Counted from the first letter of the stretch, positions 3,573 through 20,259 are shown. The stretch: 64,000 bases of DNA from Dehalococcoidia bacterium (GCA_963665775.2 CAXXTF010000002.1:352001-416000); one strand, 5' to 3'. The notes: generated from the letters alone by a model not told the origin. A program made the numbers and translations.

Positions 3573-3714
3573 GGATCTGTCAGATCTCAGGGCTTAGGCG
3601 CCGCCAGGAACGCGGTCCTGGCCTCACGACGCCCGCCCTCAGATTCGGAGGGCGTCGATTTCTCGCCCTCCAGCATGCCCCGATATGGCTCGAGCCCTGA
3701 GTTCTGACAGATCC
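3573..3714. mobile_element. 142-bp non-autonomous (MITE-like) IS6-type element
   Basis: Ends GGATCTGTCAGATCTCAGGGC and GCCCTGAGTTCTGACAGATCC closely match the IS6 IRs at 17401 and 20259; no transposase inside. Confidence 0.75.
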
Positions 3715-3715
3715 C

Positions 3716-4012
3716 TTTAGTCAGGGCTACGTCTCGTCCGAACTGCTGGTTGATAACGCTGATTACCGCACGGCCATCCGCGAGAAGATCGGCTCTGGCG
3801 CCCCCGGCTTCCAAGCTTTGTTCCCGGATGGCGGGATAGTGCCAGCCGACTATGAAGTCGTTTATGCGATCGTGGCCGAATGGGGCGATCGGACTCTTCG
3901 CGACCTCCCTTTCTTCAGCAAGATCAACCTTCGTAAGCATTCACGGAATCTGCGGCGACTGGGATTCAAGGTGACCCACGCTGCGGTGCAAGTTGTCAAT
4001 CCTGACCCATAG
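3716..4012 (+). pseudogene. C-terminal remnant of a DUF6119/TIGR04141-like protein
   Basis: FSQGYVSSELL...YEVVYAI...LPFFSKINL...LRRLGFKV; begins at the edge of the mini-element. Confidence 0.65.
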
Positions 4013-4348
4013 AAGCCAGAAAGACGGCGTCCGTAGGTTGACGAAATCTCGAACCACAGGTGTCAGCAGATCGAAAATATCCGCAGCGGTCAGGCCTGTG
4101 GGGTGCTAAAATTACATCCGTATCTGAAAACGTCATGCGGCCAGCCATTCGTACTCGTGATGTAGACCACTGTGGGGTGCCAAAACCTCATCCGTATCTG
4201 GAGATTCGGATCGGCCAGCCAAGGGATCTGGGTCTTAGATGGCCAGGAGCACCTGCGGAAGTGTCCAACTAGACTCCCTGCCCGGCAAGTAGGTGGTCCA
4301 GCGGCTGGCCTGTTACGTAGGGATAGGGTTTTGGATCCCCACAATGCT

Positions 4349-4489
4349 CTACGCCTTCCCGATGCGGGACATCTTGCCTCCGCAGACCGGGCAAGGCCCC
4401 TGGGTTGCTGGCCGTCCGTTCTTGAGGGTCACAGATTTGGCGTCGCGAATTTCTCTCATCGCCTTGCACACCAGGCAGTAACCCTGCGT
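4349..4489 (-). CDS. DUF5679-like small zinc-ribbon protein (46 aa) with ACG in place of ATG; possibly a pseudogene
   Basis: (T/M)QGYCLVCKAMREIRDAKSVTLKNGRPATQGPCPVCGGKMSRIGKA*; RBS AGGAGG; absent from the ORF track. Confidence 0.75.
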   Translation of the reverse strand, partial: TQGYCLVCKAMREIRDAKSVTLKNGRPATQGPCPVCGGKMSRIGKA

Positions 4490-4520
4490 GGCAGCCTCCT
4501 TTGGATGGATAGGTGGCCCA

Positions 4521-4548
4521 ATCATACGATGGCCAAGAGGGCTGTCAA
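4521..4548 (-). promoter_or_regulatory. Sigma70-type promoter of the DUF5679-like gene
   Basis: TTGACA-16 nt-TATGAT on the minus strand. Confidence 0.6.
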
Positions 4549-4694
4549 GGGCTAAGCACGGCGGGGTGCCAAGATGTCATCCGTGTCTGATGGGCTAGCC
4601 ACATCTTAGGCGCTCGCGGCCAAGAACCCGGAGGGTGTAAAGCGGTGGGCGCTCGAGCGGTGCCAGCGGAGCGAACGGTAAGAGTTCGCACTGG

Positions 4695-4853
4695 CTCGAG
4701 TTCGACTATGCCGTCGTGGTGGATACGGACAAGTTTAACGCGAAGGAGTTCTACGTTGCTTCGACTCGCGGCACGAGCGGATTAACTGTTCTATCACCAA
4801 GTCCCGTAGTGAGGTTCGACGGTGTCTCGAACACTTTGGAGGAGTACCCATAA
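4695..4853 (+). pseudogene. C-terminal remnant of an SF1 UvrD-like helicase (GajB-like)
   Basis: LEFDYAVVVDTDKFNAKEFYVASTRG..LTVLS, corresponding to SF1 motifs V and VI. Confidence 0.6.
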
Positions 4854-5099
4854 GTTGGTCCGCTGCTCCGATAACAGCTATCAACCATTGTGGGGTGCCA
4901 AATTGTTATCCGTATCTGAACGATGTCCTGGATATACCAGTTGCCCGCCGTTCACGTGGCTCGCATGCCACAGGTCGTGAGTGGCTCGACGAGGGTTCCA
5001 GGGCAAGGGGGCAAATGAACGGCGACTCCGGGATTCTAACTCCGGGAGTCTAGCGGCCAGCCGCCGATTCGCTGTGGCCAGCCCTTTACATCTGAGTGA

Positions 5100-5145
5100 T
5101 GGAGGGCCCGGTGGGATTCGAACCCACGACTCCCGGATTTAAAGT
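5100..5145 (-). repeat. tRNA-Lys 3' fragment, att-site copy 1
   Basis: Reverse complement ACTTTAAATCCGGGAGTCGTGGGTTCGAATCCCACCGGGCCCTCCA: T-arm, 3' acceptor strand and CCA; no 5' half. Confidence 0.8.
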
Positions 5146-5224
5146 TCGGGGGCTGCCCGCGCCTTGAGTTGTCCTCCTCTTAAATATGGGAGGTAACCAC
5201 TTCTTGCGTGCAGTTATGCGCTGT

Positions 5225-6076
5225 CTACCTCGGATTTAGGCTCCAATTCCCGTCAGCCCGGACATCCCAATAACAGGGTCCCTCGGCGAACGAGACGACC
5301 GTGCTGCCGGTGACAGCCCCGATTTCATTTTGGACGAGGTCAAACCCACCAAAGCAGAACAGCCAGACGATGAAGTTACGCGATCCGTCATGGGATACCT
5401 CCCACGGTGCCGCATTCGTACTTGAGGGTATGAAGAGCCCGCTTATCGCGTCTCCAGATCCACCGAAGCTGGACGATGTCACTATCCCTATGGGCTTAAT
5501 CGTAGCCGTCCAGGAACCATCAGCATTAATTTCCAGGAAGAATGGTTCAGCCCCCACGATTGCGCGAGTGCCCTGGTATCGACCGATCTCGTTGACGAGG
5601 AGGTCCTCTTCTCCGTTCTGAAAGACCTTGACGATGAAGTTGCTCGGCCCGGCGTGAGTAAAGGTTATGGTCGAGATCGCCGACGGTGGAGTTATCGGGT
5701 CCGTCACGACTTGGCCGACTCCCTGCAGGACTATCGGTGTCGGTGCCGGCGTAGGCACCGGCGTTGGCGTCGGACTAGCGGTTGGAGTTGCGGTCGGAGC
5801 GATTGTTGAAGTCGGCTCCGGTGTCCGAGTCGGGGTAGCGGCTGGCGTGGCACCAGGAGTGGGACTAGGTGTGGCAGTGGGTGTGGCTGTTGCGCCCCCG
5901 ACGATCCCGTCCGATTCGTCGTCTCCATCTCCGGAGCCCGCCGCGATCGAGATAATGACAATCCAGAGTAGCCCGGTGCCGACCGCGGCACTGATCTGAC
6001 CCCATCTGAATGGTATAAACCGCCGCCAGACGGGTAGCAGGACCGTCCACTCAAGGATCAGTCGGATGCGATCCAT
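5225..6076 (-). CDS. Membrane-anchored surface protein with Pro/Thr linker and two repeated beta domains
   Basis: N-terminal TM segment, PT-rich linker, duplicated H.G..NFIV...DL..NEIG...G unit. Confidence 0.7.
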   Translation of the reverse strand: MDRIRLILEWTVLLPVWRRFIPFRWGQISAAVGTGLLWIVIISIAAGSGDGDDESDGIVGGATATPTATPSPTPGATPAATPTRTPEPTSTIAPTATPTASPTPTPVPTPAPTPIVLQGVGQVVTDPITPPSAISTITFTHAGPSNFIVKVFQNGEEDLLVNEIGRYQGTRAIVGAEPFFLEINADGSWTATIKPIGIVTSSSFGGSGDAISGLFIPSSTNAAPWEVSHDGSRNFIVWLFCFGGFDLVQNEIGAVTGSTVVSFAEGPCYWDVRADGNWSLNPR

Positions 6077-6343
6077 CGCTAGAATCCTGCCTTTACTGGC
6101 CAGCTATGTCGGCGCTTCGTATTCACTCCGCTTCAGCTCCTCGATCCAGGTGGTCATGTCTGCCACCGACCTCATTGACTCTACGACTACCCACAGCATC
6201 TGATCCGGCGGTGGGTGCTTGGCAAGGTAATCAGCAAGGCAAACGACCTCACGCCGCTGGCAATGCGCCGAAAAGGTGGGTGCCTGATGGCGGATGTGAA
6301 AACAGCCGGGGAACCTCGGATCTATGATGGCTACCTTTACGAT

Positions 6344-6715
6344 TCATTCTGCATTTCTAGGGCGCTCTATCAAAGGGAGATTGACCGACTCGTCATCAGT
6401 AACGGTGAGGGTAGCGACCTGTTTGCCATCGATAAGGAGGTCAACGTGATTGTCACCCCATCGAACAAAAACCCTGATGATGCCCTCCGGGCTGGGAACG
6501 GCAGCGCTTATAGACCCAGTAAGGATTAGTTCTTCTTTATGAAGTACGTTCGCCAACTTGACCTGAATCGTTCCATCAGGAAGCTTCGTGGGCTGTGCGC
6601 TTACCTCCGCGTGGATACGGGTCGGAAACCAGTAGCTGCTCCCGTTCTTGTGCCAGTCTTGGTGCGGGTGCTGCAGCCCCAGCATGATCGTTCCTGTGTC
6701 TCTTACATCTGCCAT
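6344..6715 (-). CDS. Hypothetical protein (possible beta-sandwich fragment)
   Basis: 123-aa ORF ending with the pattern VFVRWGDNHVDLLIDGKQV. Confidence 0.35.
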   Translation of the reverse strand: MADVRDTGTIMLGLQHPHQDWHKNGSSYWFPTRIHAEVSAQPTKLPDGTIQVKLANVLHKEELILTGSISAAVPSPEGIIRVFVRWGDNHVDLLIDGKQVATLTVTDDESVNLPLIERPRNAE

Positions 6716-6894
6716 CGTAGCTCCCTCTCTGTTCAGGTACTTCCCCGCTTCTTGCGAAGCGTGCCCTTGCTATGGCCATCTGTCAATATTTTTGGCCATT
6801 TGGCCATAGAGGTAGGTGCCTGATGAACCGTCGTCAAGCGCAGGGCGCGGTGATGGGCGATAGAAAAGAAATGCGCCCGGTCTACGATGTTCCT

Positions 6895-6995
6895 TTCCCT
6901 TTGATGCTCAGCTTCGCGTTCCTTTAGCGGTCGCTCCGTAATTCCGCCGTGCTTGATCTTGTTGCCTTCTTTGAACTCGTATTTCCTATAGGTTC
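6895..6995 (-). pseudogene. Remnant of a small GIY-YIG-like nuclease
   Basis: KYEFKEGNKIKHGGITERPLKEREAEHQ fits Y..K.G....H.GIT....RE.EH. Confidence 0.45.
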
Positions 6996-7199
6996 TCGCC
7001 GGCCTGCATCCCCTGGCCCCGCGTGGAAGGCTTCCGGCCCGCCGTTGGTACACATGATAATTCTAGCGTCCTTCACTTGCCTATTGCCAGCCGTACCAGG
7101 CAAAGGTGGCAAACGAGCGGAGACCCCCGGATTCTCACTCCGGGAGTCTAGCCATCATTGGCAAGGACCACGGGGGGCCAGCCCGTTACATTTAAGTGA

Positions 7200-7246
7200 T
7201 GGAGGGCCCGGTGGGATTCGAACCCACGACTCCCGGATTAAAAGTC
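7200..7246 (-). repeat. tRNA-Lys(UUU) 3' fragment, att-site copy 2
   Basis: Reverse complement GACTTTTAATCCGGGAGTCGTGGGTTCGAATCCCACCGGGCCCTCCA, from the anticodon loop CT-TTT-AA to CCA; 40 nt identical to 5100-5139. Confidence 0.85.
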
Positions 7247-7254
7247 ACACTCTC

Positions 7255-7502
7255 AGGGCCTAATTGCTAAGGCCTCAGATTCGATAATCGGGGTGAAACT
7301 GGGGTAAGAACAGGGTGAAATCGGGACCTCGCTGAGGGGCCCAATTGCTAAAAGGCTGAAATTAAATCTGCGGTAAACTTGCGGTGAATCTTCGGCGGAT
7401 TTACGTGAGCGATCGCCTCCGCCGCGAGGGCCCTAATTGCTAAGGTAATTGTTAAGGCGCTAGATTCAGAATCTTCAGGATACCTTCAGGGAATCTTCAG
7501 GC
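7255..7502. repeat. Structured att-arm region: three GGGCC(C)(T)AATTGCTAA boxes, each followed by 11-bp-period repeats
   Basis: Boxes at about 7255, 7336 and 7427; the last is the tandem TAATTGCTAAGG-TAATTGTTAAGG. Confidence 0.75.
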
Positions 7503-8471
7503 TAATCGGGCATTCCCCAAGATCCGACTCTCCTCCGCTAGCCTCCCCTTCAAGCGATCTGCCGGGCTGAACAGGACGTGCGCCTGCGCCGCCTTCTCCG
7601 CATCGTAGGTCGCCGTGTAGCGCCGCAGCATCGCCGGCGTGGAGTGGCCAAGAAGCGTCTGAACGTCAATCTCCCTCGCTTGCTGCTCGATAGCCCAGGT
7701 GGCGAAGGTGTGGCGGAAGCGGTGCGGATGTACGTTGGTTAGAGAGGCCTTCTGGCCCAGCCTCTGGAAGATGGTCCGCAAGGCGGTCCGGCACAGGGAC
7801 TGTCCTCTGCATGTCAGAAATAGCCGCCCGGGGCCCCGGCCTCGAAATCCCTCCAGGTAGTGCTGGATGGCCCGGCGAGCCTCATCCCCAAACCGGACCA
7901 CTCGCTGTTTGTTCCCCTTCCCGTGACTGATGTGCATGCGCCCAGTCTCAAAGTCGACCTCTTCCAGATCAAGGTTACATAACTCGCTGGCCCTGAGGCC
8001 GGTGTCCAGCAGGACGAGGATGAGGGCCCGGTCTCTGGCCCCTTTGTGGGTCGAGGGATCGCACCAGGCGAGGAGGCGAAGGACATCCTCCTGGGAGAAC
8101 GGTCGAATCACCTTCTGAGGCACCTTGATGTTCTTCACCTTGGAGAACGGGTTCGTGGTGACGTAATCGTGACGCAGGAGCCAGGAGAAGAATGCCCTGG
8201 TCTCCCGCTGCCTCCGCCACTGGGTCATGGCGGAAACGCCAGTATCGGCCACGCACCCCAGGAACTGGTAGACGTGGGCAGCAGTGAAGGAGGCTGGATC
8301 CTCGGGTAGTCTCTTCTGCCCGATGACGTTCGTGAAGATCCCAAGGGACTCCCGATAAGACCGGATGGTCTCCTCCGACTTCCCCTCGATGCGACAGGAG
8401 GTGAGGTAGAGTTCGATGATCCCCGTCAGGTCCCGCTGGTGGCTGCCGTTGCCGTCGCCGTTTCTCTCCAT
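7497..8471 (-). CDS. Tyrosine recombinase/integrase (XerC/D-like fold)
   Basis: Catalytic set intact: TGLRASE, GKGNK, HPHRFRH, LLGH, RRY; likely ATG start at 8471 after GGGGAG. Confidence 0.92.
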   Translation of the reverse strand: MERNGDGNGSHQRDLTGIIELYLTSCRIEGKSEETIRSYRESLGIFTNVIGQKRLPEDPASFTAAHVYQFLGCVADTGVSAMTQWRRQRETRAFFSWLLRHDYVTTNPFSKVKNIKVPQKVIRPFSQEDVLRLLAWCDPSTHKGARDRALILVLLDTGLRASELCNLDLEEVDFETGRMHISHGKGNKQRVVRFGDEARRAIQHYLEGFRGRGPGRLFLTCRGQSLCRTALRTIFQRLGQKASLTNVHPHRFRHTFATWAIEQQAREIDVQTLLGHSTPAMLRRYTATYDAEKAAQAHVLFSPADRLKGRLAEESRILGNARLA

Positions 8472-8662
8472 GCTCTCCCCCACACTTAGATAAGAAGGCC
8501 GTGTTCCATTCATCACTCTGCTGCTGCGGGAAGTCAAGCGCCGTTGCAGAGAACGCGGGAGGAAACAGGAGCGAATCGGGCGGATAGGCCCAATTCAGGC
8601 TGCGGGAGAGGGGTCGGCACACACTAGAACGAGCGAGGTGCACACACAGGCGCGCTACCTTT

Positions 8663-9099
8663 TCAGCTTCGGATGTATTTTGACCCCCCACAATCGCTCA
8701 CTGCCCTTAGCCGGATGTATGATTGTGCCACCTATCTGTCCAAAGGAGGCTGCCATGCAGGGTTACTCCCATTTTGCCCCCCCCACACTGAGAGTTGCTG
8801 GCGGAGGGCCATATTCTCCAGGACGAGGTGATGCTGAGATCTAAAGGTGGCGCGCAGGGCAGAGCGAAGGAGCAGCAGGTGATCAATGCCGGGCCTCCGT
8901 GACTTCGTAATGTCCTAACGCTGGCCCAACTAGCTCAGTGCGTCAACCCTCCTAGATACGGATGACATTTTGCCCCCCCCCCCACACCCACAACTTCGGC
9001 TAACAGAACCCAGCTGTACAGATAGGGATGACATTTTGCCCCCCCCCACAGGTCCAGCAGCTGGCCTTTTGAATACGGATGAAGTTTTGGCACCCCACA
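8663..9099 (-). repeat. Cluster B of the ~31-bp motif (5 copies, all on the minus strand)
   Basis: Copies at 8663-8692, 8770-8787 (half), 8952-8986, 9018-9050, 9069-9099; three have poly-G tracts (G8, G11, G9). Confidence 0.9.
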
Positions 9100-9138
9100 G
9101 AGCGATTCGGGGACGCACCGCCCATGCCGAGGACGACG

Positions 9139-9879
9139 CTACGTTGCTGGCGTATCAAAGCGGCTATGGATCACTTTGTACTTGTTCCGTAGTCTCACAA
9201 AGTCCCAGAGCTCTCCGTGCTTCTCGCGAGTGACTATTATGATCCCGGCTTCTTTGAGTTCCTTCACGCCGCGAGTCCATGTGTCCTCAGAGAGTCCATA
9301 CTGCAAGCGCGCCCTGTCGGGTCTGACATGGGCGCCTTGTTCACGATCTTTCTCTCCCACCAGTTCTGACAGAATGAGGAGGAGGGCGATCGCGCGACCT
9401 GAGAGTCGAACGATCCACCCGTTCGTCCAGAACGTAACGGGAAGATTCACCCAGGTGCTCCTTGGGCGGGAGTATGGTTTGCCATCTCCGGTATGACTCC
9501 GTAGGTAGACTCGTCGCGGCCGGCCACGGCGTCGGTTATCTATGGAGATGAGTTTGTGCTGCTGCAACGAAGCAATAGCCTCGCTTACTCGGCGCGCACC
9601 GTTAATTTTAGGGCTAGGGAGGTTGAGCATCTCGGCCCACACCCGTGCCGGCTGGGGCCGAACATCGAATGGATCGCTGGTGGCTAGCAGGTTCATTGAC
9701 AGGAAAAGTTTCAGCCTCACCTCCCCTCCGCGGCCTCCGCGCATCAACGTGGCCAACGGAGGCGGCCGTCCGTCGTCGCGACGGATGAAGTCTTTTGCAA
9801 GGGGGACAACGCTGCGTCTTGATGTAGTAACCACCCAGTGGAGGAGACGGCGACCATCGGTAGTAACGGTGTTTTTCAA
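9139..9879 (-). CDS. Basic hypothetical DNA-binding protein, probably tandem winged-helix
   Basis: Two wHTH-like segments (RVWAEMLNL..ARRVSEAIASLQQHKLISI; YGLSEDTWTRGVKELKEAGIIIV...RNKY). Confidence 0.6.
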   Translation of the reverse strand: MKNTVTTDGRRLLHWVVTTSRRSVVPLAKDFIRRDDGRPPPLATLMRGGRGGEVRLKLFLSMNLLATSDPFDVRPQPARVWAEMLNLPSPKINGARRVSEAIASLQQHKLISIDNRRRGRPRRVYLRSHTGDGKPYSRPRSTWVNLPVTFWTNGWIVRLSGRAIALLLILSELVGEKDREQGAHVRPDRARLQYGLSEDTWTRGVKELKEAGIIIVTREKHGELWDFVRLRNKYKVIHSRFDTPAT

Positions 9880-10337
9880 ATTCGTGCTCCTTGTTGCGGG
9901 GGGAGCGGGGCTGCTGTGGTAGTGCTAGGCGTTGCAGGCGTTCCTCGGGTTGCAGGCATTATCGGTCCAATCGAATCCGTTTCCGCCGTCGGCGCCACCG
10001 CAATAGATGCATTGGTTTATTGGTACGCAACGCCAGGATAGTACCGCAACAATAGCATGTTACCCCCTACATATCCTCCTTGCGGTCCCGCCATAAAGGT
10101 GTCGCGGGTGTATTTGACCGGGTACGTTGCCGCCCGATAATAATCATAGACGAAAAGAGGCCTAGGACTGAAGCACCAGCCCTAGGTCTAGATAGATACA
10201 CCGCAGGGATGGGAATCACCTCAGGTGTCTCCGCGCTAATCTCCGATCCGTCTAGCGAACGACTTTTGCGAGCCTATGGATGTCAGGTGGGAGCGGGCCG
10301 CTGGGGTTGGCCTTCGCAGCATCCGAGGAAATCCACT

Positions 10338-10432
10338 GCTCTCTGGCAGCAGATGGCCGCGATCTATCCGCCCTATAACGACTACCAGGCGCGCACCGAG
10401 CGCGAGATCCCAGTCGTCATTCTGGATCTGGA
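10338..10432 (+). pseudogene. C-terminal remnant of a deazaflavin-dependent nitroreductase (Ddn-like)
   Basis: [28 protein letters not shown]. Confidence 0.6.
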
Positions 10433-10439
10433 CCAGTTT

Positions 10440-10612
10440 GGCGGCGTGCTGTGTCTTGACGGTCTGGTGCAGTAGGTCGGGCAACGCGAATAGATCCCGG
10501 GTGCCCTGTAGAAAGAGCATCGGGACGGCGATATTCACTAAGTGAGCGTCTCGGATGCGTTCGGGCTTGCCGGGCGGGTGGAGCGGGTAGCCGAGAAACA
10601 CGAGACCCGAAG
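10440..10612 (-). pseudogene. Internal remnant of an alpha/beta hydrolase
   Basis: [33 protein letters not shown]. Confidence 0.65.
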
Positions 10613-10706
10613 ATGCCACTCTACACCTCCCCGACAGCAAGGATGGCCGTGCTTCAATCGCCCCGCCCGGCACGGAGTCCCGCATGAGAAGCGCTATGCC
10701 GTATGA

Positions 10707-11387
10707 CTACTGGGACGAGCCACTGGACTGGACGATCCGCATGTACGCGCTCACCCCGAGGAGGGCACCAAGAGGCGGGCCAAGCCAGTAAACCCACTGA
10801 TCCTCGAATGTGAAAGTCGCGAGAGCGGGTCCAAGTGAGCGAGCTGGGTTCATTGAGCCACCGGTAAGGGGCCCAGCCAGGATTGCTCCAACGCATACGG
10901 CTCCACCAACTCCGAGAGCGGCAGTTACGGATGAGAGGTCCTGCTTTGAGATGACGATGGCGACGACGAGCGCCAATAGCGCAGTGATGGCGATCTCTAT
11001 AGTTAGCGCCTCTCCCAGCGTGACGGAGGGGACTGTCGCACCGAGCTGGACTTTGTTTCCGGCTAGGATCAGCAACAGGAGACTAGCCGCTACGGCTCCA
11101 CCAATCTGGGACGCGATGTAAGCCGGAATGTCACGGTATCGGAACCTACCGTAGACAGCAAGCGCGAAGCTTATCGCAGGATTAAAGTGAGATCCGGACA
11201 CATGCCTGGTAGCATAGACCATCAACCCAATGGCGAGCCCGAACACGATCCCAATTCCGAGGTTGCCTAAAGGCCAATCTGCTGACCCATCGAGAACGAT
11301 TGCCCCCGTGCCCGCAAACACAAAGGCGAAGGTCCCAAGGAACTCAGCCTGGCAGCGGCGAATTAGGGAATTTGTGCTCAAACGCAA
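10707..11387 (-). CDS. MIP family aquaporin/aquaglyceroporin
   Basis: AEFLGTF, SGSHFNPA, GGSMNPARS, WVYW.GP..GA. Confidence 0.9.
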   Translation of the reverse strand: MRLSTNSLIRRCQAEFLGTFAFVFAGTGAIVLDGSADWPLGNLGIGIVFGLAIGLMVYATRHVSGSHFNPAISFALAVYGRFRYRDIPAYIASQIGGAVAASLLLLILAGNKVQLGATVPSVTLGEALTIEIAITALLALVVAIVISKQDLSSVTAALGVGGAVCVGAILAGPLTGGSMNPARSLGPALATFTFEDQWVYWLGPPLGALLGVSAYMRIVQSSGSSQ

Positions 11388-11567
11388 TTCTTCAAGCGGC
11401 TCCGGCCGAATCCATCCAAGCTCTTCCCGAATTGGATCAATGCGTGTGGAGACTGTTCGCTACCCCGGATAAAAAGTTAATCCTCCGATCCAAGTGCCAG
11501 CGATCGTCGGGGCTCCTCTGCTCGGCGGACGCAACAGGAGACGACCGTTGCCAGCACCTCGCTGAGA

Positions 11568-13760
<2,193 letters not shown>

Positions 13761-14158
13761 TTATTGACCGGCCCCTATTAACGGGTGAAACGTCTGGTCA
13801 CGCCTCCCGTGCCACGGGTTGGGGCAAACTGTGGTCGCAGCCGTATTTCATACCGCCCTGATTATGACTCTGCCGCTCCGCCAAGTGGCGCATGCAAAGT
13901 GTGGCACCGCAGCTCAGGCACAGAGCTACCGCCGTCAGTTCCTCGCCTCGCTGCGCGCAAACATAACAGTTCACGGTCCGCCGCCTTCTAAGACTAAGTC
14001 TGTGTTTAGAATCTGTGTATCGCGAAGGCTAATGGGGGGGAGGGTGGATGTCAAGGGGTAAACATGGTGAGCCCCTGATTAAGTTATGCTGCGCGATGGT
14101 CGCCAAACCGTTCTGCATATGGCATGATTCGCCGTGAGAAAACGTCCGGAGATCAGGA

Positions 14159-15367
14159 GTGAACGAGATGGCGAAGATCCTTTGCGTGCTCTATGACGAT
14201 CCGGTGGGTGGCTACCCGACATCGTATTCGCGTGACGACATACCAACGCTTCACCATTACCCAGGTGGACAGACGCTACCGACTCCCGGCGCGATCGACT
14301 TTGTGCCGGGCGAGCTCTTGGGCAGCGTCTCGGGTGGGCTCGGGCTGCGCAAGTTTCTCGAAGGGCTTGGCCACACCCTGGTCGTAACCTCCGACAAGGA
14401 CGGCGCCGATTGCGAGTTCGAACGGGAATTGCCCGATGCGGAAGTCGTCATTTCCCAGCCGTTCTGGCCTGCATATCTGACCGCTGAGCGGATTGCCAGC
14501 GCGCCTAAACTAAAGTTAGCAGTGACCGCTGGCGTTGGCTCTGATCATGTCGACCTGCAGGCTGCGTTGGAAAGGGGCCTCACCGTCGCTGAGGTGACCT
14601 ACTCCAATAGTATCAGCGTGAGCGAGCACGTTGTGATGCTAATCTTGTCGCTTGTGCGAAACTATATCCCCTCCTATCGATGGGTTATAAATGGGGGCTG
14701 GAATATCGCTGACTGCGTCGACAGGTCATACGACCTGGAGGGTATGACAGTCGGAACCGTCGGTGCTGGCCGGATCGGTACAGCTGTCTTGAGGAGGCTG
14801 AAGCCGTTCGACGTCAATCTGCACTACACGGACCGACACCGGCTGCTGGAAGGCGTCGAGCGCGAGCTTCGGCTGACTTTTCATTCCGATGCGGAGTCGA
14901 TGGTGCGTGTCTGCGATGTCGTTACTGTCAACGCCCCGCTTCATCCCGAGACCGAGCATATGTTCAACGACGCCCTTATCGGCAAGATGAAGCGAGGCGC
15001 TTATCTCGTCAATACGGCCCGCGGCAAGATCTGTGACAGGGATGCCGTGGCCAGAGCACTGGAAAGCGGGCAACTTGCCGGGTACGCGGGCGACGTTTGG
15101 TTTCCCCAGCCACCACCGAAGGACCACCCCTGGCGGACAATGCCGAATCACGGCATGACGCCCCACGTATCCGGGACGTCGTTATCGGCGCAGGCCCGCT
15201 ACGCTGCTGGGGTGCGCGAGATCCTGGAATGCTGGTTCGACAGCCGTTCCATCCGCGAAGAGTATTTGATCGTCGACAATGGCAGGTTGGCCGGCGCAGG
15301 AGCTCATTCTTACAGCGCTGGCGACGCTACCCACGGCTCCGAGGAAGCCGAGCGATTCAGGCAATAG
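14159..15367 (+). CDS. fdh: NAD-dependent, metal-independent formate dehydrogenase
   Basis: MAKILCVLYDDP, PGELLGSVSG.LGLRKFLE, ISQPFWPAY, GAGRIG, GYAGDVWFPQP, MTPHVSGTSLSAQARYAAG. Confidence 0.95.
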   Translation: MNEMAKILCVLYDDPVGGYPTSYSRDDIPTLHHYPGGQTLPTPGAIDFVPGELLGSVSGGLGLRKFLEGLGHTLVVTSDKDGADCEFERELPDAEVVISQPFWPAYLTAERIASAPKLKLAVTAGVGSDHVDLQAALERGLTVAEVTYSNSISVSEHVVMLILSLVRNYIPSYRWVINGGWNIADCVDRSYDLEGMTVGTVGAGRIGTAVLRRLKPFDVNLHYTDRHRLLEGVERELRLTFHSDAESMVRVCDVVTVNAPLHPETEHMFNDALIGKMKRGAYLVNTARGKICDRDAVARALESGQLAGYAGDVWFPQPPPKDHPWRTMPNHGMTPHVSGTSLSAQARYAAGVREILECWFDSRSIREEYLIVDNGRLAGAGAHSYSAGDATHGSEEAERFRQ

Positions 15368-15427
15368 ACCGGGTGAGCGGGCCGACCCGATCGGACTGCT
15401 AGGGCGATCCCGTCGAACCCCATCCAT

Positions 15428-15458
15428 TGTGGGGCGCCAAAACTCCATCCGCGGCGGT
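15428..15458 (+). repeat. ~31-bp motif copy
   Basis: TGTGGGGCGCCAAAACTCCATCCG, 60 bp after the fdh stop. Confidence 0.8.
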
Positions 15459-15937
15459 GAGGCCGCATCTCGCCGGAGAATAGTTGCCCCAAACGGGCTT
15501 CGCGGCGGCACTGATAATCGCGGTTAACTAAACGATGAGCCGCAACGTTTATATCATTTCTGTCCCTGCGCTCGGCTCCAACTGGAAGGTGCCGGTAGAT
15601 GCTTCGTAGATGCATGTTATGGTGGCACCATCTGACGTGCCGAACCTGCCGTTCTCTGCCGAATCGGTAGCCCTACACCTCACCCGGCAGCGCAGCCTTA
15701 CGTACGCCTAATGACCGTCCTAATGGCGCCAGAAGCGCAACTCATCCAACAAGTGAATCCCGTTGTAGGGCTCCTCTAGCAAACTCCTCACTCGGTCCGA
15801 ATCTCGGCTCATGTGGCTTTGGGTGTCGCTTCTTCATCGTTCAATACACTCCAGTCCTGAGCCTGTGCCCATTCCTGGAATGTATGCCAGCTAGCCTCGG
15901 GTGGGCTTTACGGAGCGTCTCGATGTCGGCGCTGTAT

Positions 15938-15968
15938 TGTGGGGCGCCAAAACCTCATCCGCTATAAT
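15938..15968 (+). repeat. ~31-bp motif copy, probable left end of the adjacent IS remnant
   Basis: TGTGGGGCGCCAAAACCTCATCCGCTATAAT starts about 110 bp before the transposase remnant. Confidence 0.8.
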
Positions 15969-16045
15969 CGGCCCTGTGATTACGGTTGTCGGCAGGTAGG
16001 TGTTGCCTCTTGCTCCAGAGCCTTCGTAATTGGCGGAACCGCCTC

Positions 16046-16430
16046 ATGGCGCGTCTCGTCGACCGGCTCGACCTGGTTCTCGAGAACCTTGCGCTGCAGC
16101 ACCAGTTGAGAGTATAGGAACGCGGACGCCGTCTCCAGGGCAGCGATCGCCTTTACTGGTGTCTTCTTTCACGCTTCTGGCTGAGGTGGCGGGAGCCGCT
16201 AATGGTCGTTCAGCCGGCTACTGTCTGGCGCTGGCGCCGGACAGCCTGGTGGCGGCATCTAGGCCAGCGCCTTCACTTGGGCGGAAGGCCGCCGATCGAT
16301 CCAGATCTGCAGGCGCTGATTCAACGGATGGCGGCAGAGAACCGTCTGTGGGGCAGCATGCGCATCGTCGGGGCGTTACGGGCAGCTGGGCTTCAGGGTG
16401 AGCAACTCGACGGTGCGCCGGTACCGCGGA
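16046..16430 (+). pseudogene. N-terminal remnant of an integrase-core (rve) DDE transposase, IS3/IS481-like
   Basis: LVLENLALQHQL, DRLYW, VVQPATVWRW, GRPPI..LIQRMAAENRLWG..RI.G.L, VSNSTVRRY; internal TAG at 16115, frameshift, no DDE domain. Confidence 0.8.
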
Positions 16431-16475
16431 GGCAGCGCGCGACCACTGCCGACGCAGGGTTGGGCGACCGCAGGC

Positions 16476-17285
16476 TCATTCTTCCTGGGCGTCAGGCTTC
16501 GGCGGGCGGATACGAAGGGTCTTGAGGGCGAAAGCAGTGGCCGCCATCGGCGGAGCCGCGCGCCACATGTCGCCCCAAGCGCCGCCCCCCGCCCGGTCGA
16601 GAACGGGTGCTACGTCGCGCAATAGGCGGAACATGGGCCGCACTAGGCCCCCGCTCTGCGAGCGACGCGGCGACTCGCCAGCCGCGATCGCATCCAGCGC
16701 GCCAGCAAGCGCTTTCGTGTCATTGGCCCACTGCGCACGGAAGAGGATCGTCCCGTCTTTGCCTAGAGCGTAGGCAGAGTTGGGTTTTGGACTCAGGGCA
16801 CGGTGGAAAGTGCCGTCGATGTCGTCCACCGCCACTTCGAACTTGAATTCGTGGAGGTCACGTAGCTGTCCCGCGTGCGCCATCTTCTCGTCGAGCGATT
16901 TGGGCTGGGGCACCGCCTTTCCGGGGTGCGCTTCACGGACGTCCACTATCACGAAGCGCACGCGGTCGCCCAAGCGCGCGTGCAGCTCTTTCAGGCCAGG
17001 GGCGGCGCTGTCCGTCACGGGGCAGGTGTAAGAGCCGAAGATCAGCAGCGCCGGTCCGGTCTCGCCGAGATCGGTGGACCGGAAGCGGCCTCCGCCCAAA
17101 GTCGGGAGGTCGAAGTCGGGCACGCGGTCGCCTGGCCCCGGATCATCTCTGCTGTAGTACAGGTCCTTCAACACGAGCGGCAGTGCGAGATGGTCGAAGC
17201 GGTAGCGTTGTCCGACGTCCTGGGAGTCGTCGCTTCGCTTCTGTCCTGAGGTGCCGATGTGAGTCTCGCCAGTTTCCTTTGTCAT
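16476..17285 (-). CDS. Thioredoxin-fold deiodinase-like/redoxin protein
   Basis: PGD.VPDFDL.TL.G, LLIFGSYTCP, VREAHPG, VAVDD.DG..H. Confidence 0.75.
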   Translation of the reverse strand: MTKETGETHIGTSGQKRSDDSQDVGQRYRFDHLALPLVLKDLYYSRDDPGPGDRVPDFDLPTLGGGRFRSTDLGETGPALLIFGSYTCPVTDSAAPGLKELHARLGDRVRFVIVDVREAHPGKAVPQPKSLDEKMAHAGQLRDLHEFKFEVAVDDIDGTFHRALSPKPNSAYALGKDGTILFRAQWANDTKALAGALDAIAAGESPRRSQSGGLVRPMFRLLRDVAPVLDRAGGGAWGDMWRAAPPMAATAFALKTLRIRPPKPDAQEE

Positions 17286-17400
17286 CTTCCAACTCCTTTC
17301 TTGGTCGGGCGTTGTCCTATAGGATTGCCCCCTCCCCTCAATTCTTAGGCTGGGCCGTGACGAGCCGGACGGATCCGGGTCCTTCGCCTCACCCCGAAAC

Positions 17401-18347
17401 GGTTCTGTCAGAACTCAGGGCGTCAATGCCGCGGAGATGGTTCTCGGTTCGTAATCGGGGCTGATTACGCTGCTGCCATCTCCGCCGTCAGCGCCTGCCA
17501 TCTCGATAGGAAGACTCGACGCCTCTCCGACAAAGACATCTGCCCGCCCATTGGCGTGCGGATGCGCAGGTACTGGCGCAGCTCTTCGAACGCCGAGCAG
17601 AAGCGCTTCGCCGACTCCATTCGCTTGAACCCCAGCATGGGGTAGTAGCGCTGTTTGATGGCCCGGTGGTCCTGCTCGATACGATTGTTCAGGTACCGAC
17701 TCTGCCGGTGCAAGACCTTCCCACCCAGTATCCAGCGGATCGCCTTTCCGTAGGCCGGATGCTGGTCAGTGGTGAGGCGCAACGGCTTGTGGGTCGTGAC
17801 GTCGGCCAGCCGCCGTAGAAAGAGACGGGCAGCCGCTCTATCCCTTCGCTCACTCAGCATCGAGTCCAGAAGATTGCCGTCCCGGTCAATGGCGCGGTAC
17901 AGGTAACGCCAACGACCGCCGACCTTCACGTAGGTCTCATCTAGATACCAGGAGAGACCGCTTGTCTGGCCGCGCCGCCGGGTACGCAGTTGTTCGCCCA
18001 GAAGAGGAGCAAACCGGAACTCCCATGCCCGTACCGTCTCGTGTGTGACCTCGTAGCCTCGCTGAAGGAGCGGTTCGGCGACATCGCGGAACCCAAGCTT
18101 GTAGCGTAACCGCCAGAGGACCGCCAACAGGACGATGTCGGTGGGGAACTGGAGGTCGTTGTAGGGCGTACCGGTGCGCTCGTTAAAGCGACGGTGGCAA
18201 GACCTACACGAGAACCTATGGTAGCCTAGGGTGGAGCGGTGCTTCCGTTTGCTGGTTGCTGTCGATCGGCAATGCGGGCAGTTCATGGGTAGCTCCTCTC
18301 CTACATTGAGACAAGCTTACCCCCGCGCCCTGAGTTCTGACAGAACC
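17401..18347 (-). mobile_element. IS6-family insertion sequence, copy 1 (947 bp)
   Basis: IRs GGTTCTGTCAGAACTCAGGGCG at both ends; encodes a transposase. Confidence 0.93.
17465..18286 (-). CDS. IS6-family DDE transposase with N-terminal zinc ribbon
   Basis: WYLDETYVKVGG.W.YLYRAID, TTD, YLNNRIEQDHR.IK. Confidence 0.93.
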   Translation of the reverse strand: MNCPHCRSTATSKRKHRSTLGYHRFSCRSCHRRFNERTGTPYNDLQFPTDIVLLAVLWRLRYKLGFRDVAEPLLQRGYEVTHETVRAWEFRFAPLLGEQLRTRRRGQTSGLSWYLDETYVKVGGRWRYLYRAIDRDGNLLDSMLSERRDRAAARLFLRRLADVTTHKPLRLTTDQHPAYGKAIRWILGGKVLHRQSRYLNNRIEQDHRAIKQRYYPMLGFKRMESAKRFCSAFEELRQYLRIRTPMGGQMSLSERRRVFLSRWQALTAEMAAA

Positions 18348-18549
18348 CGTCCAGTCCGGAGGCCAGCATGAGACCGCCGGCCCCGGCAGTGTGGGAGGAG
18401 CCGGACGTACGGGCCGGCTCACATCGCTCAGCCGCCGGCAACGCCTGTCCAGCGCGCCCGGATACGCCCCCGATCACCAGCAGGAGCAATGTGATCGCCG
18501 CAAAGGCGGCAAACAGCAACAGGTAGCTTCTTCTCAGCCTTTTTCCCAT
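18348..18549 (-). pseudogene. Inverted 5' end (signal peptide) of the secreted metalloprotease gene that continues at 20260
   Basis: MGKRLRRSYLLLFAAFAAITLLLLVIGG...LASGLD ends at the IS boundary and joins in frame to AMTDESD. Confidence 0.85.
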
Positions 18550-19086
18550 ACCCTCTGACACGGGGGATCCGGCAATCCATCTCGTACTGGAAGACGCGTG
18601 GCTTCGGGCGGCATTACTCGCGCTCCAAGATCGCGGCCCAGAAGGCACAAGTTGTTCTGCCCGCCGTAAGGCACCGCCGTCTCCACTCTAATATAACGAG
18701 ACCGAGCGGAAACCGTCCTCGACCTCATGTTCGGCCGCTCATTATATCGTGAATTTCGATCGAGCGCGCCCAATAAGGACCTCGGCAGGCCACCTTCCGA
18801 CCGAAGCGGGACGGAGCCTCGCCCCCAGCGATACGCTAGGGTTCAGCCGGTCCTCCAGTTTTGCGGCCGGACAGGCCATCGGCTGCTACACTACTCCTAG
18901 TGCTGGGCTGGCTACAAAGCTAGTTGACAGGAACCATAGGCGCTGTTTCAATACCTGCGGAGGCCTTTCGGGAAATTAGCGCCCGGGCGAGAGTGTGGGT
19001 GTCGCCCGCGGAGCTGATATTTCGGGGGGGGCAGCGGGACGCCTGAAACCGCCCGAAATAGTTTTGGCGAAGGCCTCTCACAGGGA

Positions 19087-19161
19087 GCGGGCGTAGCTCA
19101 GTGGTAGAGCATCTGCTTCCCAAGCAGAGGGCCGTGGGTTCGATCCCCATCGCCCGCTCCA
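19087..19161 (+). tRNA. tRNA-Gly(CCC)
   Basis: GCGGGCG acceptor stem, anticodon arm TCTGC-TTCCCAA-GCAGA, GGTTCGAT, CCA end. Confidence 0.95.
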
Positions 19162-19258
19162 AGTACAACTTGGCCGACATCCGGGAACGCTCCGGCTGTC
19201 TGGGATACAATCCATCAGCCTCAACATGGGCGGTGGCAGAGCGGTGCGCGAACGTCCG

Positions 19259-19289
19259 CCAGATACGGATGAAATGTTGACACCCTATA
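19259..19289 (-). repeat. Degenerate ~31-bp motif copy
   Basis: Reverse complement TATAGGGTGTCAACATTTCATCCGTATCTGG. Confidence 0.7.
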
Positions 19290-19312: not shown

Positions 19313-20259
19313 GGTTCTGTCAGAACTCAGGGCGCGGGGGTAAGCTTGTCTCAATGTAGGAGAGGAGCTACCCATGAACTGCCCGCATTGCCGATCGACA
19401 ACAACCAGCAAACGGAAGCACCGCTCCACCCTAGGCTACCATAGGTTCTCGTGTAGGTCTTGCCACCGTCGCTTTAACGAGCGCACCGGTACGCCCTACA
19501 ACGACCTCCAGTTCCCCACCGACATCGTCCTGTTGGCGGTCCTCTGGCGGTTACGCTACAAGCTTGGGTTCCGCGATGTCGCCGAACTGCTCCTTCAGCG
19601 AGGCTACGAGGTCACACACGAGACGGTACGGGCATGGGAGTTCCGGTTTGCTCCTCTTCTGGGCGAACAACTGCGTACCCGGCGGCGCGGCCAGACAAGC
19701 GGTCTCTCCTGGTATCTAGATGAGACCTACGTGAAGGTCGGCGGTCGTTGGCGTTACCTGTACCGCGCCATTGACCCGGACGGCAATCTCCTGGACTCGA
19801 TGCTGAGTGAGCGAAGGGATAGAGCGGCTGCCCGTCTCTTTCTACGGCGGCTGGCCGACGTCACGACCCACAAGCCGTTGCGCCTCACCACTGACCAGCA
19901 TCCGGCCTACGGAAAGGCGATCCGCTGGATACTGGGTGGGAAGGTCTTGCACCGGCAGAGTCGGTACCTGAACAATCGTATCGAGCAGGACCACCGGGCC
20001 ATCAAACAGCGCTACTACCCCATGCTGGGGTTCAAGCGAATGGAGTCGGCGAAGCGCTTCTGCTCGGCGTTCGAAGAGCTGCGCCAGTACCTGCGCATCC
20101 GCACGCCAATGGGCGGGCGGATGTCTTTGTCGGAGAGGCGTCGAGTCTTCCTATCGAGATGGCAGGCGCTGACGGCGGAGATGGCAGCAGCGTAATCAGC
20201 CCCGATTACGAACCGAGAACCATCTCCGCGGCATTGGCGCCCTGAGTTCTGACAGAACC
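19313..20259 (+). mobile_element. IS6-family insertion sequence, copy 2 (947 bp), inverted relative to copy 1
   Basis: Same IRs and length as copy 1; transposase differs at 4 residues. Confidence 0.93.
19374..20195 (+). CDS. IS6-family DDE transposase
   Basis: Same motifs as copy 1. Confidence 0.93.
   Translation: MNCPHCRSTTTSKRKHRSTLGYHRFSCRSCHRRFNERTGTPYNDLQFPTDIVLLAVLWRLRYKLGFRDVAELLLQRGYEVTHETVRAWEFRFAPLLGEQLRTRRRGQTSGLSWYLDETYVKVGGRWRYLYRAIDPDGNLLDSMLSERRDRAAARLFLRRLADVTTHKPLRLTTDQHPAYGKAIRWILGGKVLHRQSRYLNNRIEQDHRAIKQRYYPMLGFKRMESAKRFCSAFEELRQYLRIRTPMGGRMSLSERRRVFLSRWQALTAEMAAA

Follow-up and report, generated by a model that had tools for sequence, protein, structure and literature searches.

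In this study we ask what the ~31-bp motif beginning with TGT is that recurs in a 64,000-nucleotide stretch of a Dehalococcoidia bacterium (GCA_963665775.2, CAXXTF010000002.1:352001-416000; this whole stretch is called the window below), and whether its arrangement around a tyrosine recombinase gene has a meaning. A first-pass annotation had counted thirteen copies, nested and facing each other around the integrase. It favoured orphan ends of an element that inserts repeatedly inside its own ends, and considered pdif/integron-like recombination sites as the other possibility. The evidence below indicates that the motif is very probably the terminal inverted repeat of a family of insertion sequences (IS) ~1.17 kb in length, which has miniature inverted-repeat transposable element (MITE) derivatives.

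A search with the strict consensus (at most three mismatches) returned four matches in the window (4097+, 4171+, 4889+ and 9069-9099-), against 0.00 expected from 100 dinucleotide-preserving shuffles. A profile built from 11 window copies (nhmmer, E<=0.05) recovered twelve termini, at 4097+, 4171+, 4343-, 4560+, 4889+, 8692-, ~8986-, 9050-, 9099-, 15428+, 15938+ and 19289-. The thirteenth copy, the half copy of the first-pass annotation, is an 18-nt stub read by eye at 8770-8787(-), a piece too short for the profile to detect. The count of thirteen is confirmed in this sense, and so are the other details that had been described: there are no profile matches past 19289 even at E<=10, leaving the core half of the window free of the motif; the left cluster is mostly on the plus strand and the right cluster entirely on the minus strand; the extra bases GGTCCAGCRGCTGGCCT are present at both 4295 and 9051; and the copy at 15938, followed by TATAAT, precedes an rve-type transposase remnant (16043-16469). 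An Rfam scan of 1-22 kb found tRNA-Gly alone, and the motif matches no known RNA family.

The genome (two contigs, C1 and C2; 2.35 Mb; 63% G+C) contains 50 copies of the repeat (E<=0.05), on both contigs. Twelve of them lie inside this 15 kb; the motif is dispersed, so the window is not its sole home. All except two fall in C1:650-842 kb, C2:11-371 kb and C2:1427-1491 kb, that is 48 copies in ~26% of the genome, and the other 1.7 Mb holds the remaining two. A clean core thus seems to be set apart, in this genome, from plastic regions rich in IS.

At C2:333820-334991 and C1:786492-787666, the motif forms convergent pairs spaced by 1172 and 1175 bp; the two units are 96% identical to each other and each holds one long rve open reading frame (ORF). 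The predicted transposase has the Pfam domains rve_3 (47.7 bits, above cut-off) and HTH_32, the latter a helix-turn-helix (HTH), and residues D145, D204 and E239, which do not vary among 13 homologues, show the D-E spacing of 35 that characterizes the DD(35)E arrangement. The element has a single gene, encoding a ~346-aa HTH plus rve_3 DD(35)E transposase. Homologues are abundant: 7991 of 8000 scored candidates pass E<=0.001, most of them 343-346 aa long. Their names in the sources are 'transposase InsO family' or 'integrase' only, and plasmid homologues of 40-46% identity carry the PGAP label 'integrase core domain-containing protein'. Across loci, the full elements measure 1124-1175 bp and 233 of the 248 distinct termini begin with TGT. 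By analogy with IS3, IS481 and IS30, the inner block CATCCGTATCTG would be the part bound by the HTH domain of the transposase, and the outer TGTGGGG...CAAAA block would place the TGT/ACA tip for cleavage and strand transfer.

The same structure was found in other genomes. At 17 related loci (Chloroflexota/Dehalococcoidia and a few other phyla), the repeat stands at both ends of the gene in six, with lengths of 1124-1173 bp. The complete genome of one relative has three 1174-bp copies, two of which are 99.9% identical and have open 365-codon frames; therefore, the family is active in other genomes. Of 31 relatives, 7 have the repeat pattern, as do 10 of 401 genomes of the class (the present genome counted in both), whereas the reversed pattern, used as a control, gave 0 matches against relatives and class genomes alike. 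At least 116 metagenome stretches contain the exact repeat. Non-autonomous derivatives appear as convergent pairs of ~135-500 bp, and in relatives such pairs of ~160 bp (MITEs) lie between rpoD, mreB and bipA with no recombinase nearby. All together, the element family is common in Chloroflexota/Dehalococcoidia, and the repeat is distributed in the way that marks an insertion sequence with its MITEs. In one relative, the rpoD-mreB segment with the same MITEs is found twice (L018 and L019, G025:C1:196500-204000 and 1719500-1727000), 1.5 Mb apart and in opposite orientation, which reflects a large inverted duplication or else an error of assembly.

The copies within the window do not form a working system. 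They are dead relics and comprise an intact MITE, five solo repeats, a pseudogene copy that is truncated, and two staircases (Table 1). In a staircase, an end fragment stops precisely where the following element begins with its TGT tip; one staircase consists of a 74-bp fragment and the other of fragments of 49, 64, 199 and 18 bp.

Table 1. Terminal repeats and adjoining features of the window. Positions are counted from the first nucleotide of the window.
Feature	Position	Strand	Evidence or relation
74-bp end fragment, IRR-type (transposase-distal)	4097..4170	+	IS coordinates 1172->1101, 81-91% identity; cut off by the 4171 terminus (MITE)
Complete 173-bp MITE, both repeats (4171-4201 +, 4313-4343 -)	4171..4343	.	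71% full-length vs C1:800025-800198 (174 bp)
Small DUF5679 zinc-ribbon gene	4349..4480	-	Pfam DUF5679 59 bits, E 5e-16
Degenerate terminal repeat, begins GGC not TGT, abuts DUF5679 promoter	4560..4590	+	nhmmer E 2.5e-7
Solo terminal repeat	4889..4919	+	2 mismatches to consensus
att-like repeat copy 1, tRNA-Lys 3' part and flank	4995..5145	.	80% vs 7093-7245; 87.5% vs C2:1423881-1423991
att-like repeat copy 2	7093..7245	.	direct orientation to copy 1
Tyrosine recombinase (phage-integrase family)	7497..8537	-	Pfam Phage_integrase 136 bits and N-terminal SAM-like domains
Solo terminal repeat, between integrase and duplicated DUF5679 promoter	8663..8692	-	nhmmer E 3.3e-5
Inverted duplicate, DUF5679 promoter and first five codons, cut by IS end	8693..8769	+	8717-8770 = 4527-4474 at 90.7%
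18-nt terminal-repeat stub	8770..8787	-	TGT, G run, CAAAATG; fused to codon 5 of the small gene
199-bp IRL-type (transposase-proximal) end with transposase gene start	8788..8986	-	8792-8978 = IS 196-5, 81-87%, five copies
64-bp end fragment, cut by 8986 terminus	8987..9050	-	nhmmer E 1.5e-6
49-bp MITE-type end fragment, cut by 9050 terminus	9051..9099	-	87% C1:800148-800194; 78% window 4295-4343
Solo terminal repeat, diverged subfamily (TGTGGGGCGCC...)	15428..15458	+	nhmmer E 2.4e-5
Diverged-subfamily IRL and ~430 bp of transposase pseudogene	15938..16469	+	tblastn with homologue P0006
Degenerate terminal repeat, begins TAT	19259..19289	-	nhmmer E 1.7e-6; 98 bp downstream of tRNA-Gly(CCC)

The intact MITE has what is expected of such an element: it is short and non-coding, has the repeats of the autonomous IS and belongs to several related copies. 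It matches C2:1428785-1428919 at 93% over 135 bp, has no ORF of its own, and is one of two complete MITE copies in the genome. It abuts the stop codon of the DUF5679 gene, upstream of which a promoter-like TTGACA-17-TATGAT was read by eye (to ~4559); paralogues of this gene lie at C2:343133-343267 (89%) and C2:631087-631221. The degenerate repeat next to this promoter is the mirror image of the 8663-8692 copy. No IS-like sequence was recognized inside the 4889-4919 repeat in comparisons with other copies. The transposase remnant of the 15938 copy corresponds to residues 12-133 and 127-159 of P0006, at 48% identity and with one stop, and its subfamily end (CATCCGCTATGAT) was also found in metagenome locus L043.

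Can any of these copies still move? Searching the genome by tblastn with a 346-aa homologue retrieved two full-length transposase copies, all remaining matches being fragments. The copy on C2 has a 2-bp deletion near codon 40, outside any homopolymer, and the copy on C1 has a TGG->TAG change. Because both full-length copies carry lesions, nothing in this genome appears able to move the repeats, and they are probably immobile here. Six sequencing runs from three studies hold 0.85-0.90 of the sampled words. We compared contigs from four runs of the three studies, material that cannot show circles or rare variants. These contigs bridge the nested junctions (3662-4205, 4400-5124, 8738-11582 and 13660-16343) with 0-10 differences; thus, the nested arrangement is fixed in the sampled populations. 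Joints within contigs (15 of 43 listed) were not counted as rearrangements: their sides are 21-29 nt long and correspond to further members of the repeat family, and the joint 4310/CTTT/8953, for example, reproduces the MITE end of C1:800148-800198. The exception is one backward joint, 19691->7137, with sides of 40-53 nt.

The copies had been described as bracketing positions 4920-8662, with the integrase and the tRNA-Lys att copies, in the manner of nested inverted repeats. The tyrosine recombinase gene lies beside the motif and does not belong to it. Paralogues of the integrase at 91% identity lie at C2:341893-342930 and C2:1438462-1439454, and the gene family also includes C2:1449747-1450685 and C1:838179-838625. 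Each gene of this family is near a ~150-bp repeat from the 3' side of tRNA-Lys(ttt), and most are now far from that tRNA gene. The att-like repeats match the tRNA-Lys(ttt) region (C2:1423881-1423991 overlaps the tRNA gene at C2:1423856-1423930) and five other loci. This suggests that the recombinase genes and tRNA-Lys repeats are decayed, rearranged integrative elements. The module near C2:341893-342930 keeps the right-hand repeat (C2:343060) and the small gene, and 8450-8770 matches C2:342843-343139 at 89%. A genome profile scan found no left-hand repeat copy at either 91% paralogue, and the flanks of 4889 and 8692 share no duplication (...CAACCAT before, ATCGCTC after). Because the paralogous modules are without the left-hand copy and the flanks share no duplication, positions 4920-8662 and the repeats around them do not make up a conserved mobile unit. 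The mirror arrangement is partly an inverted duplication of a module composed of MITE end, DUF5679 gene, promoter and repeat.

These results also bear on two other ways of reading the array. If the copies were pdif/integron-like recombination sites served by the local tyrosine recombinase, it could be understood that one copy lies ~125 bp upstream of the integrase gene both here and in one 91%-identical paralogous module, and the abstract of PMC10132070 mentions that some IS1202-family elements adjoin Xer sites. However, there is no motif copy near the third integrase paralogue (C2:1438462-1439454), and in relatives the motif occurs between rpoD, mreB and bipA with no recombinase near. Sites of the Xer, pdif or integron kind bound exchangeable gene modules and are bound by a tyrosine recombinase; the pairs seen here surround transposase genes or, in the empty MITEs, nothing. 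Read by eye, the motif does not show a dyad of two recombinase half-sites around a central spacer, and in the four runs no alternative junction with a side of at least 30 nt was found among the 15 of 43 joints listed, save the one backward joint. We therefore consider recombination sites highly improbable. No more credit can be given to the idea that both clusters are the multi-site ends of one Tn7/Mu-like transposon carrying 4920-8662 as cargo; the first-pass annotation had likened the start of the motif to the Tn7 end. TnsB and MuA bind arrays of repeated sites at each transposon end; the TGT tip, the several similar sites per side and the inward orientation of both clusters, left on the plus strand and right on the minus strand, are reminiscent of this organization. 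Nevertheless, each copy starts at a TGT tip of its own and represents, in truncated form, a standard IS end (IRL- or IRR-type) or a MITE end, not an internal binding site; the outer flanks of 4889 and 8692 show no duplication; and the paralogous integrase modules have no left cluster. Positions 1-22 kb contain no large TnsB-like ORF, and TnsA/TnsB/TnsC-type domains were found in none of the 23 ORFs scanned there. A whole-genome scan for TnsA (PF08722) and Mu transposase C (PF09299) gave no match, a result that is uninformative since 14 control genomes were also silent.

We then examined what the termini reveal of the target. In a set of 239 distinct termini, TGT is preceded by C in 72% and in no case by A, position -2 is G or C in 88%, and position -3 is G in 44%. 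These flank frequencies imply a palindromic, G-S-C^G-S-C-like target preference. According to ISfinder, as quoted in a passage of PMC10045372, IS481 elements produce target duplications of 2-15 bp, mostly 6 bp. The first-pass annotation had suggested looking for such duplications at paired copies flanking transposases. In 46 distinct convergent pairs, direct-repeat lengths are those of the shuffled control, the exceptions being one 6-bp repeat (a MITE in L141) and one 4-bp repeat. A simple IS481-type insertion model is thus not demonstrated.

The distances between stacked ends form the second part of the problem. Nested cuts in the window lie at 49, 64, 74 and 199 bp. We assembled a metagenome set of 80 loci (391 kb, 159 repeat matches), chosen for the exact repeat. 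Convergent neighbours in this set are MITE-sized (134-505 bp) or IS-sized (1164-1174 bp), and 40 neighbouring pairs run in the same direction. When all sequences were pooled and identical events collapsed, 71 distinct same-direction pairs were obtained: none is separated by 0-44 bp, six by 45-56 bp (all 49-55), none by 57-62 bp, seven by 63-75 bp (all 66-74) and three by 76-110 bp. In L040, L042 and L071, the left end of one IS is interrupted at precisely position 70, each time by a different MITE and with a different outer flank, and its uninterrupted version is present in L046, L068 and L085. Cuts in IRR-type ends lie at 50 bp (L050 and L069), 72 bp (L096) and 74 bp (the window); an IRL-type end is cut at 50 bp in L056. 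At nine one-sided junctions inspected (eight distinct), the outer element does not resume beyond the inner one, and a '+ + - -' pattern occurs in none of the 44 loci with at least two repeat matches. The notion of insertion 50-75 bp inside the element's own end thus gains support, since these distances recur, one-sided, in unrelated metagenome contigs.

Separately, a hairpin was read by eye at ~60-85 of the IS left end (for example in C2:333820-334991, minus strand), with a 6-bp stem, GTGGAG/CTCCAC, and a 9-nt loop. It sits just 5' of the GGAGG that precedes the transposase start, and the recurrent position-70 cut coincides with the edge of the loop.

How might such stacks arise? The likeliest origin of the staircases is a preference of incoming copies for DNA just inside a resident end, ~50 and ~70 bp from its tip; a transposase occupying that end would steer the incoming tip to the DNA just past the protected region. 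The rest of the resident element would be lost if only one junction were made by the transposase, as in the one-ended 'targeted' transposition of IS911 and IS30; alternatively, the inner element could promote a transposase-mediated adjacent deletion. A more far-reaching account would be that of an apparently unnamed, large IS481-like clade that integrates without target duplication at a G-S-C^G-S-C-like step, uses the transposase-bound resident end as a ruler and joins one-endedly ~50 or ~70 bp (two helical turns further) inside it, the staircases being the record of successive transpositions. As a whole, this account is possible but unlikely.

Several observations weigh against the main reading, that of an IS family whose copies stack inside resident ends. 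The 46 convergent pairs show no target duplication beyond chance, and the two 99.9%-identical intact copies of the relative have none. The best of four NCBIfam matches of the transposase, IS481 (NF033577), reaches 102.5 bits against a cut-off of 224, and the second, IS3 (NF033516), 87.7 bits against 160. The element behaves like an insertion sequence of the IS481/IS3 type with MITEs. Formal IS481 membership is not established, because the model score is below cut-off and the target duplication was not found. The element may already be catalogued in ISfinder; no paper on it came up in our literature searches, whose design was not meant to establish absence. Nested cuts elsewhere in this genome lie ~251, ~313 and ~483 bp from the resident tip. 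Finally, the stacking events are few, the distance bins were picked after the data had been seen, the loci were selected for the exact repeat, and fragments shorter than ~30 nt are invisible to the profile.

Alternatively, the repeat could be an IS end whose stacking has no mechanistic meaning: copies would survive in dispensable DNA and be trimmed by deletion, and 50 and 70 bp would be noise or a sequence hotspot. The confinement of 48 of 50 genome copies to three regions is in line with such a neutral pile-up, as are the nested cuts at 196-199, 251, ~313 and ~483 bp in this genome; moreover, the termini have a short flank preference in common, and such sites exist at end positions 50 and 70. 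Nevertheless, different elements in different contigs strike the same position: there are three hits at 70, and 50 is hit in IRL-type as well as in IRR-type ends. The intervals 31-48 and 57-62 bp are free of events. Frequent as they are in this DNA, G-S-C triplets alone cannot explain two narrow peaks, and keeping the short fragment would be the opposite of slippage between close direct repeats. We regard a neutral origin as doubtful, though a serious possibility. The narrower proposal, that end-proximal targeting is real rather than a neutral pile-up, has an even chance or slightly less. Simple nested insertion followed by a deletion, through homologous recombination or slippage, was rejected as the sole cause, outer and inner ends being of opposite types in some cases (IRR-type fragments before IRL-type tips in L056 and L021) and the retained fragment being the short one. 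A composite of end fragment and inner element moving together is also a misfit, the same 70-bp fragment standing before three different elements in L040, L042 and L071. The favoured reading of the first-pass annotation, orphan ends of an element inserting inside itself, is largely borne out: it holds for the TGT...ACA rve-type ends, the paired copies flanking transposases and the stacking at 49-74 bp. The expected target duplications were not found, and neither a Tn7-type element nor a bracket kept as a unit is supported.

Other observations concern the surroundings of the array. Two inverted IS6-family transposase genes (DDE_Tnp_IS240, ~142 bits), 17465-18286(-) and 19374-20195(+), flank tRNA-Gly(CCC) (19087-19161) and the 19259-19289 repeat, and this pair resembles a small composite structure. 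A duplicated tRNA-Gly as island boundary was rejected, as the tRNA-Gly(ccc) at C1:846875 differs in sequence from that of the window. The catalase-peroxidase gene at 11505-13772 (Pfam peroxidase, 249 bits) has summed contig depths in the thousands in all four runs, with neighbouring bins in the tens; the depth presumably reflects homologues of other organisms, not copy number. Elsewhere in the genome, two termini lie back-to-back at C2:161193-161197 with ~4 bp of overlap and resemble the IRR-IRL joint of tandem or circular forms; one match is weak (E 0.047). A second, unrelated IS of ~1274 bp has at least 13 copies at 97.6-99.4% identity (among them C2:110378-111651, C1:36425-37698 and C2:184371-185644). 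Repeats of the TGACCTTGCCCCC type open its ends, its rve transposase shares only ~25% identity with that of the present element, and it looks recently active.

Among known systems, IS481 provides the best NCBIfam model, and the element resembles it in its single-ORF, rve-type DDE transposase of the DD(35)E kind with an N-terminal HTH, its TGT...ACA tips and its size of ~1.1-1.2 kb, IS481 elements measuring ~1-1.3 kb. It differs by its score (102.5 vs 224 bits, NF033577) and by the lack of a detected 2-15-bp duplication. TGT...ACA termini are ascribed to IS481 relatives in a passage of PMC10045372. The IS3 family, with IS911, has in common with the element a DD(35)E integrase-like fold and TG...CA tips; the two overlapping ORFs with -1 frameshift are replaced here by a single ORF, and the score is 87.7 vs 160 bits (NF033516). 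For IS911, work cited in a passage of PMC9333248 describes 'targeted' insertion next to a resident repeat through single-strand transfer. Here the junction falls within the resident end, ~50 or ~70 bp from its tip, rather than alongside. IS30 belongs to another transposase family, for which the NCBIfam scan returned no model match; it forms abutted IRL-IRR junctions, of which only one back-to-back pair is seen here (C2:161193/161197). Its inverted-repeat targeting, in which resident ends are preferred targets and deletions start exactly at the repeat edge (as described in PMC9333248), resembles what the one-sided junctions suggest. In targeting of this type, a resident end attracts insertion, the transposase makes one junction and the host resolves the other. 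The indications of IS911/IS30-type targeting in the present element, from a small selected sample, are that the junction distances recur and that the junctions are always one-sided. Tn7 and Mu ends are alike in tip and multiplicity of sites; here, separate truncated element ends with their own tips are found, and no TnsABC-like genes in 1-22 kb. Bacterial MITEs are closely comparable to the 173-bp element at 4171-4343 and the ~135-500-bp pairs, which have IS repeats, no ORF and an intergenic position; they differ in that no target duplication was found and that this genome has only two complete copies.

For annotation, this means that the array should be described as IS and MITE debris, not as a new recombination system nor as a cargo transposon around an integrase. 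The repeat profile together with the ~346-aa rve_3 protein offers a signature for an element that is very common in Chloroflexota metagenomes and that pipelines label only 'integrase core domain'. If fixed-distance, one-sided stacking without duplications were true, the family would lend itself naturally to studies of how resident ends are selected as targets by a DDE transposase, and would help in understanding the growth of IS-dense islands in small genomes. Set beside the known systems, the array of the window is ordinary IS and MITE debris in a decayed island, in which the spacing and the missing duplication are a modest curiosity.

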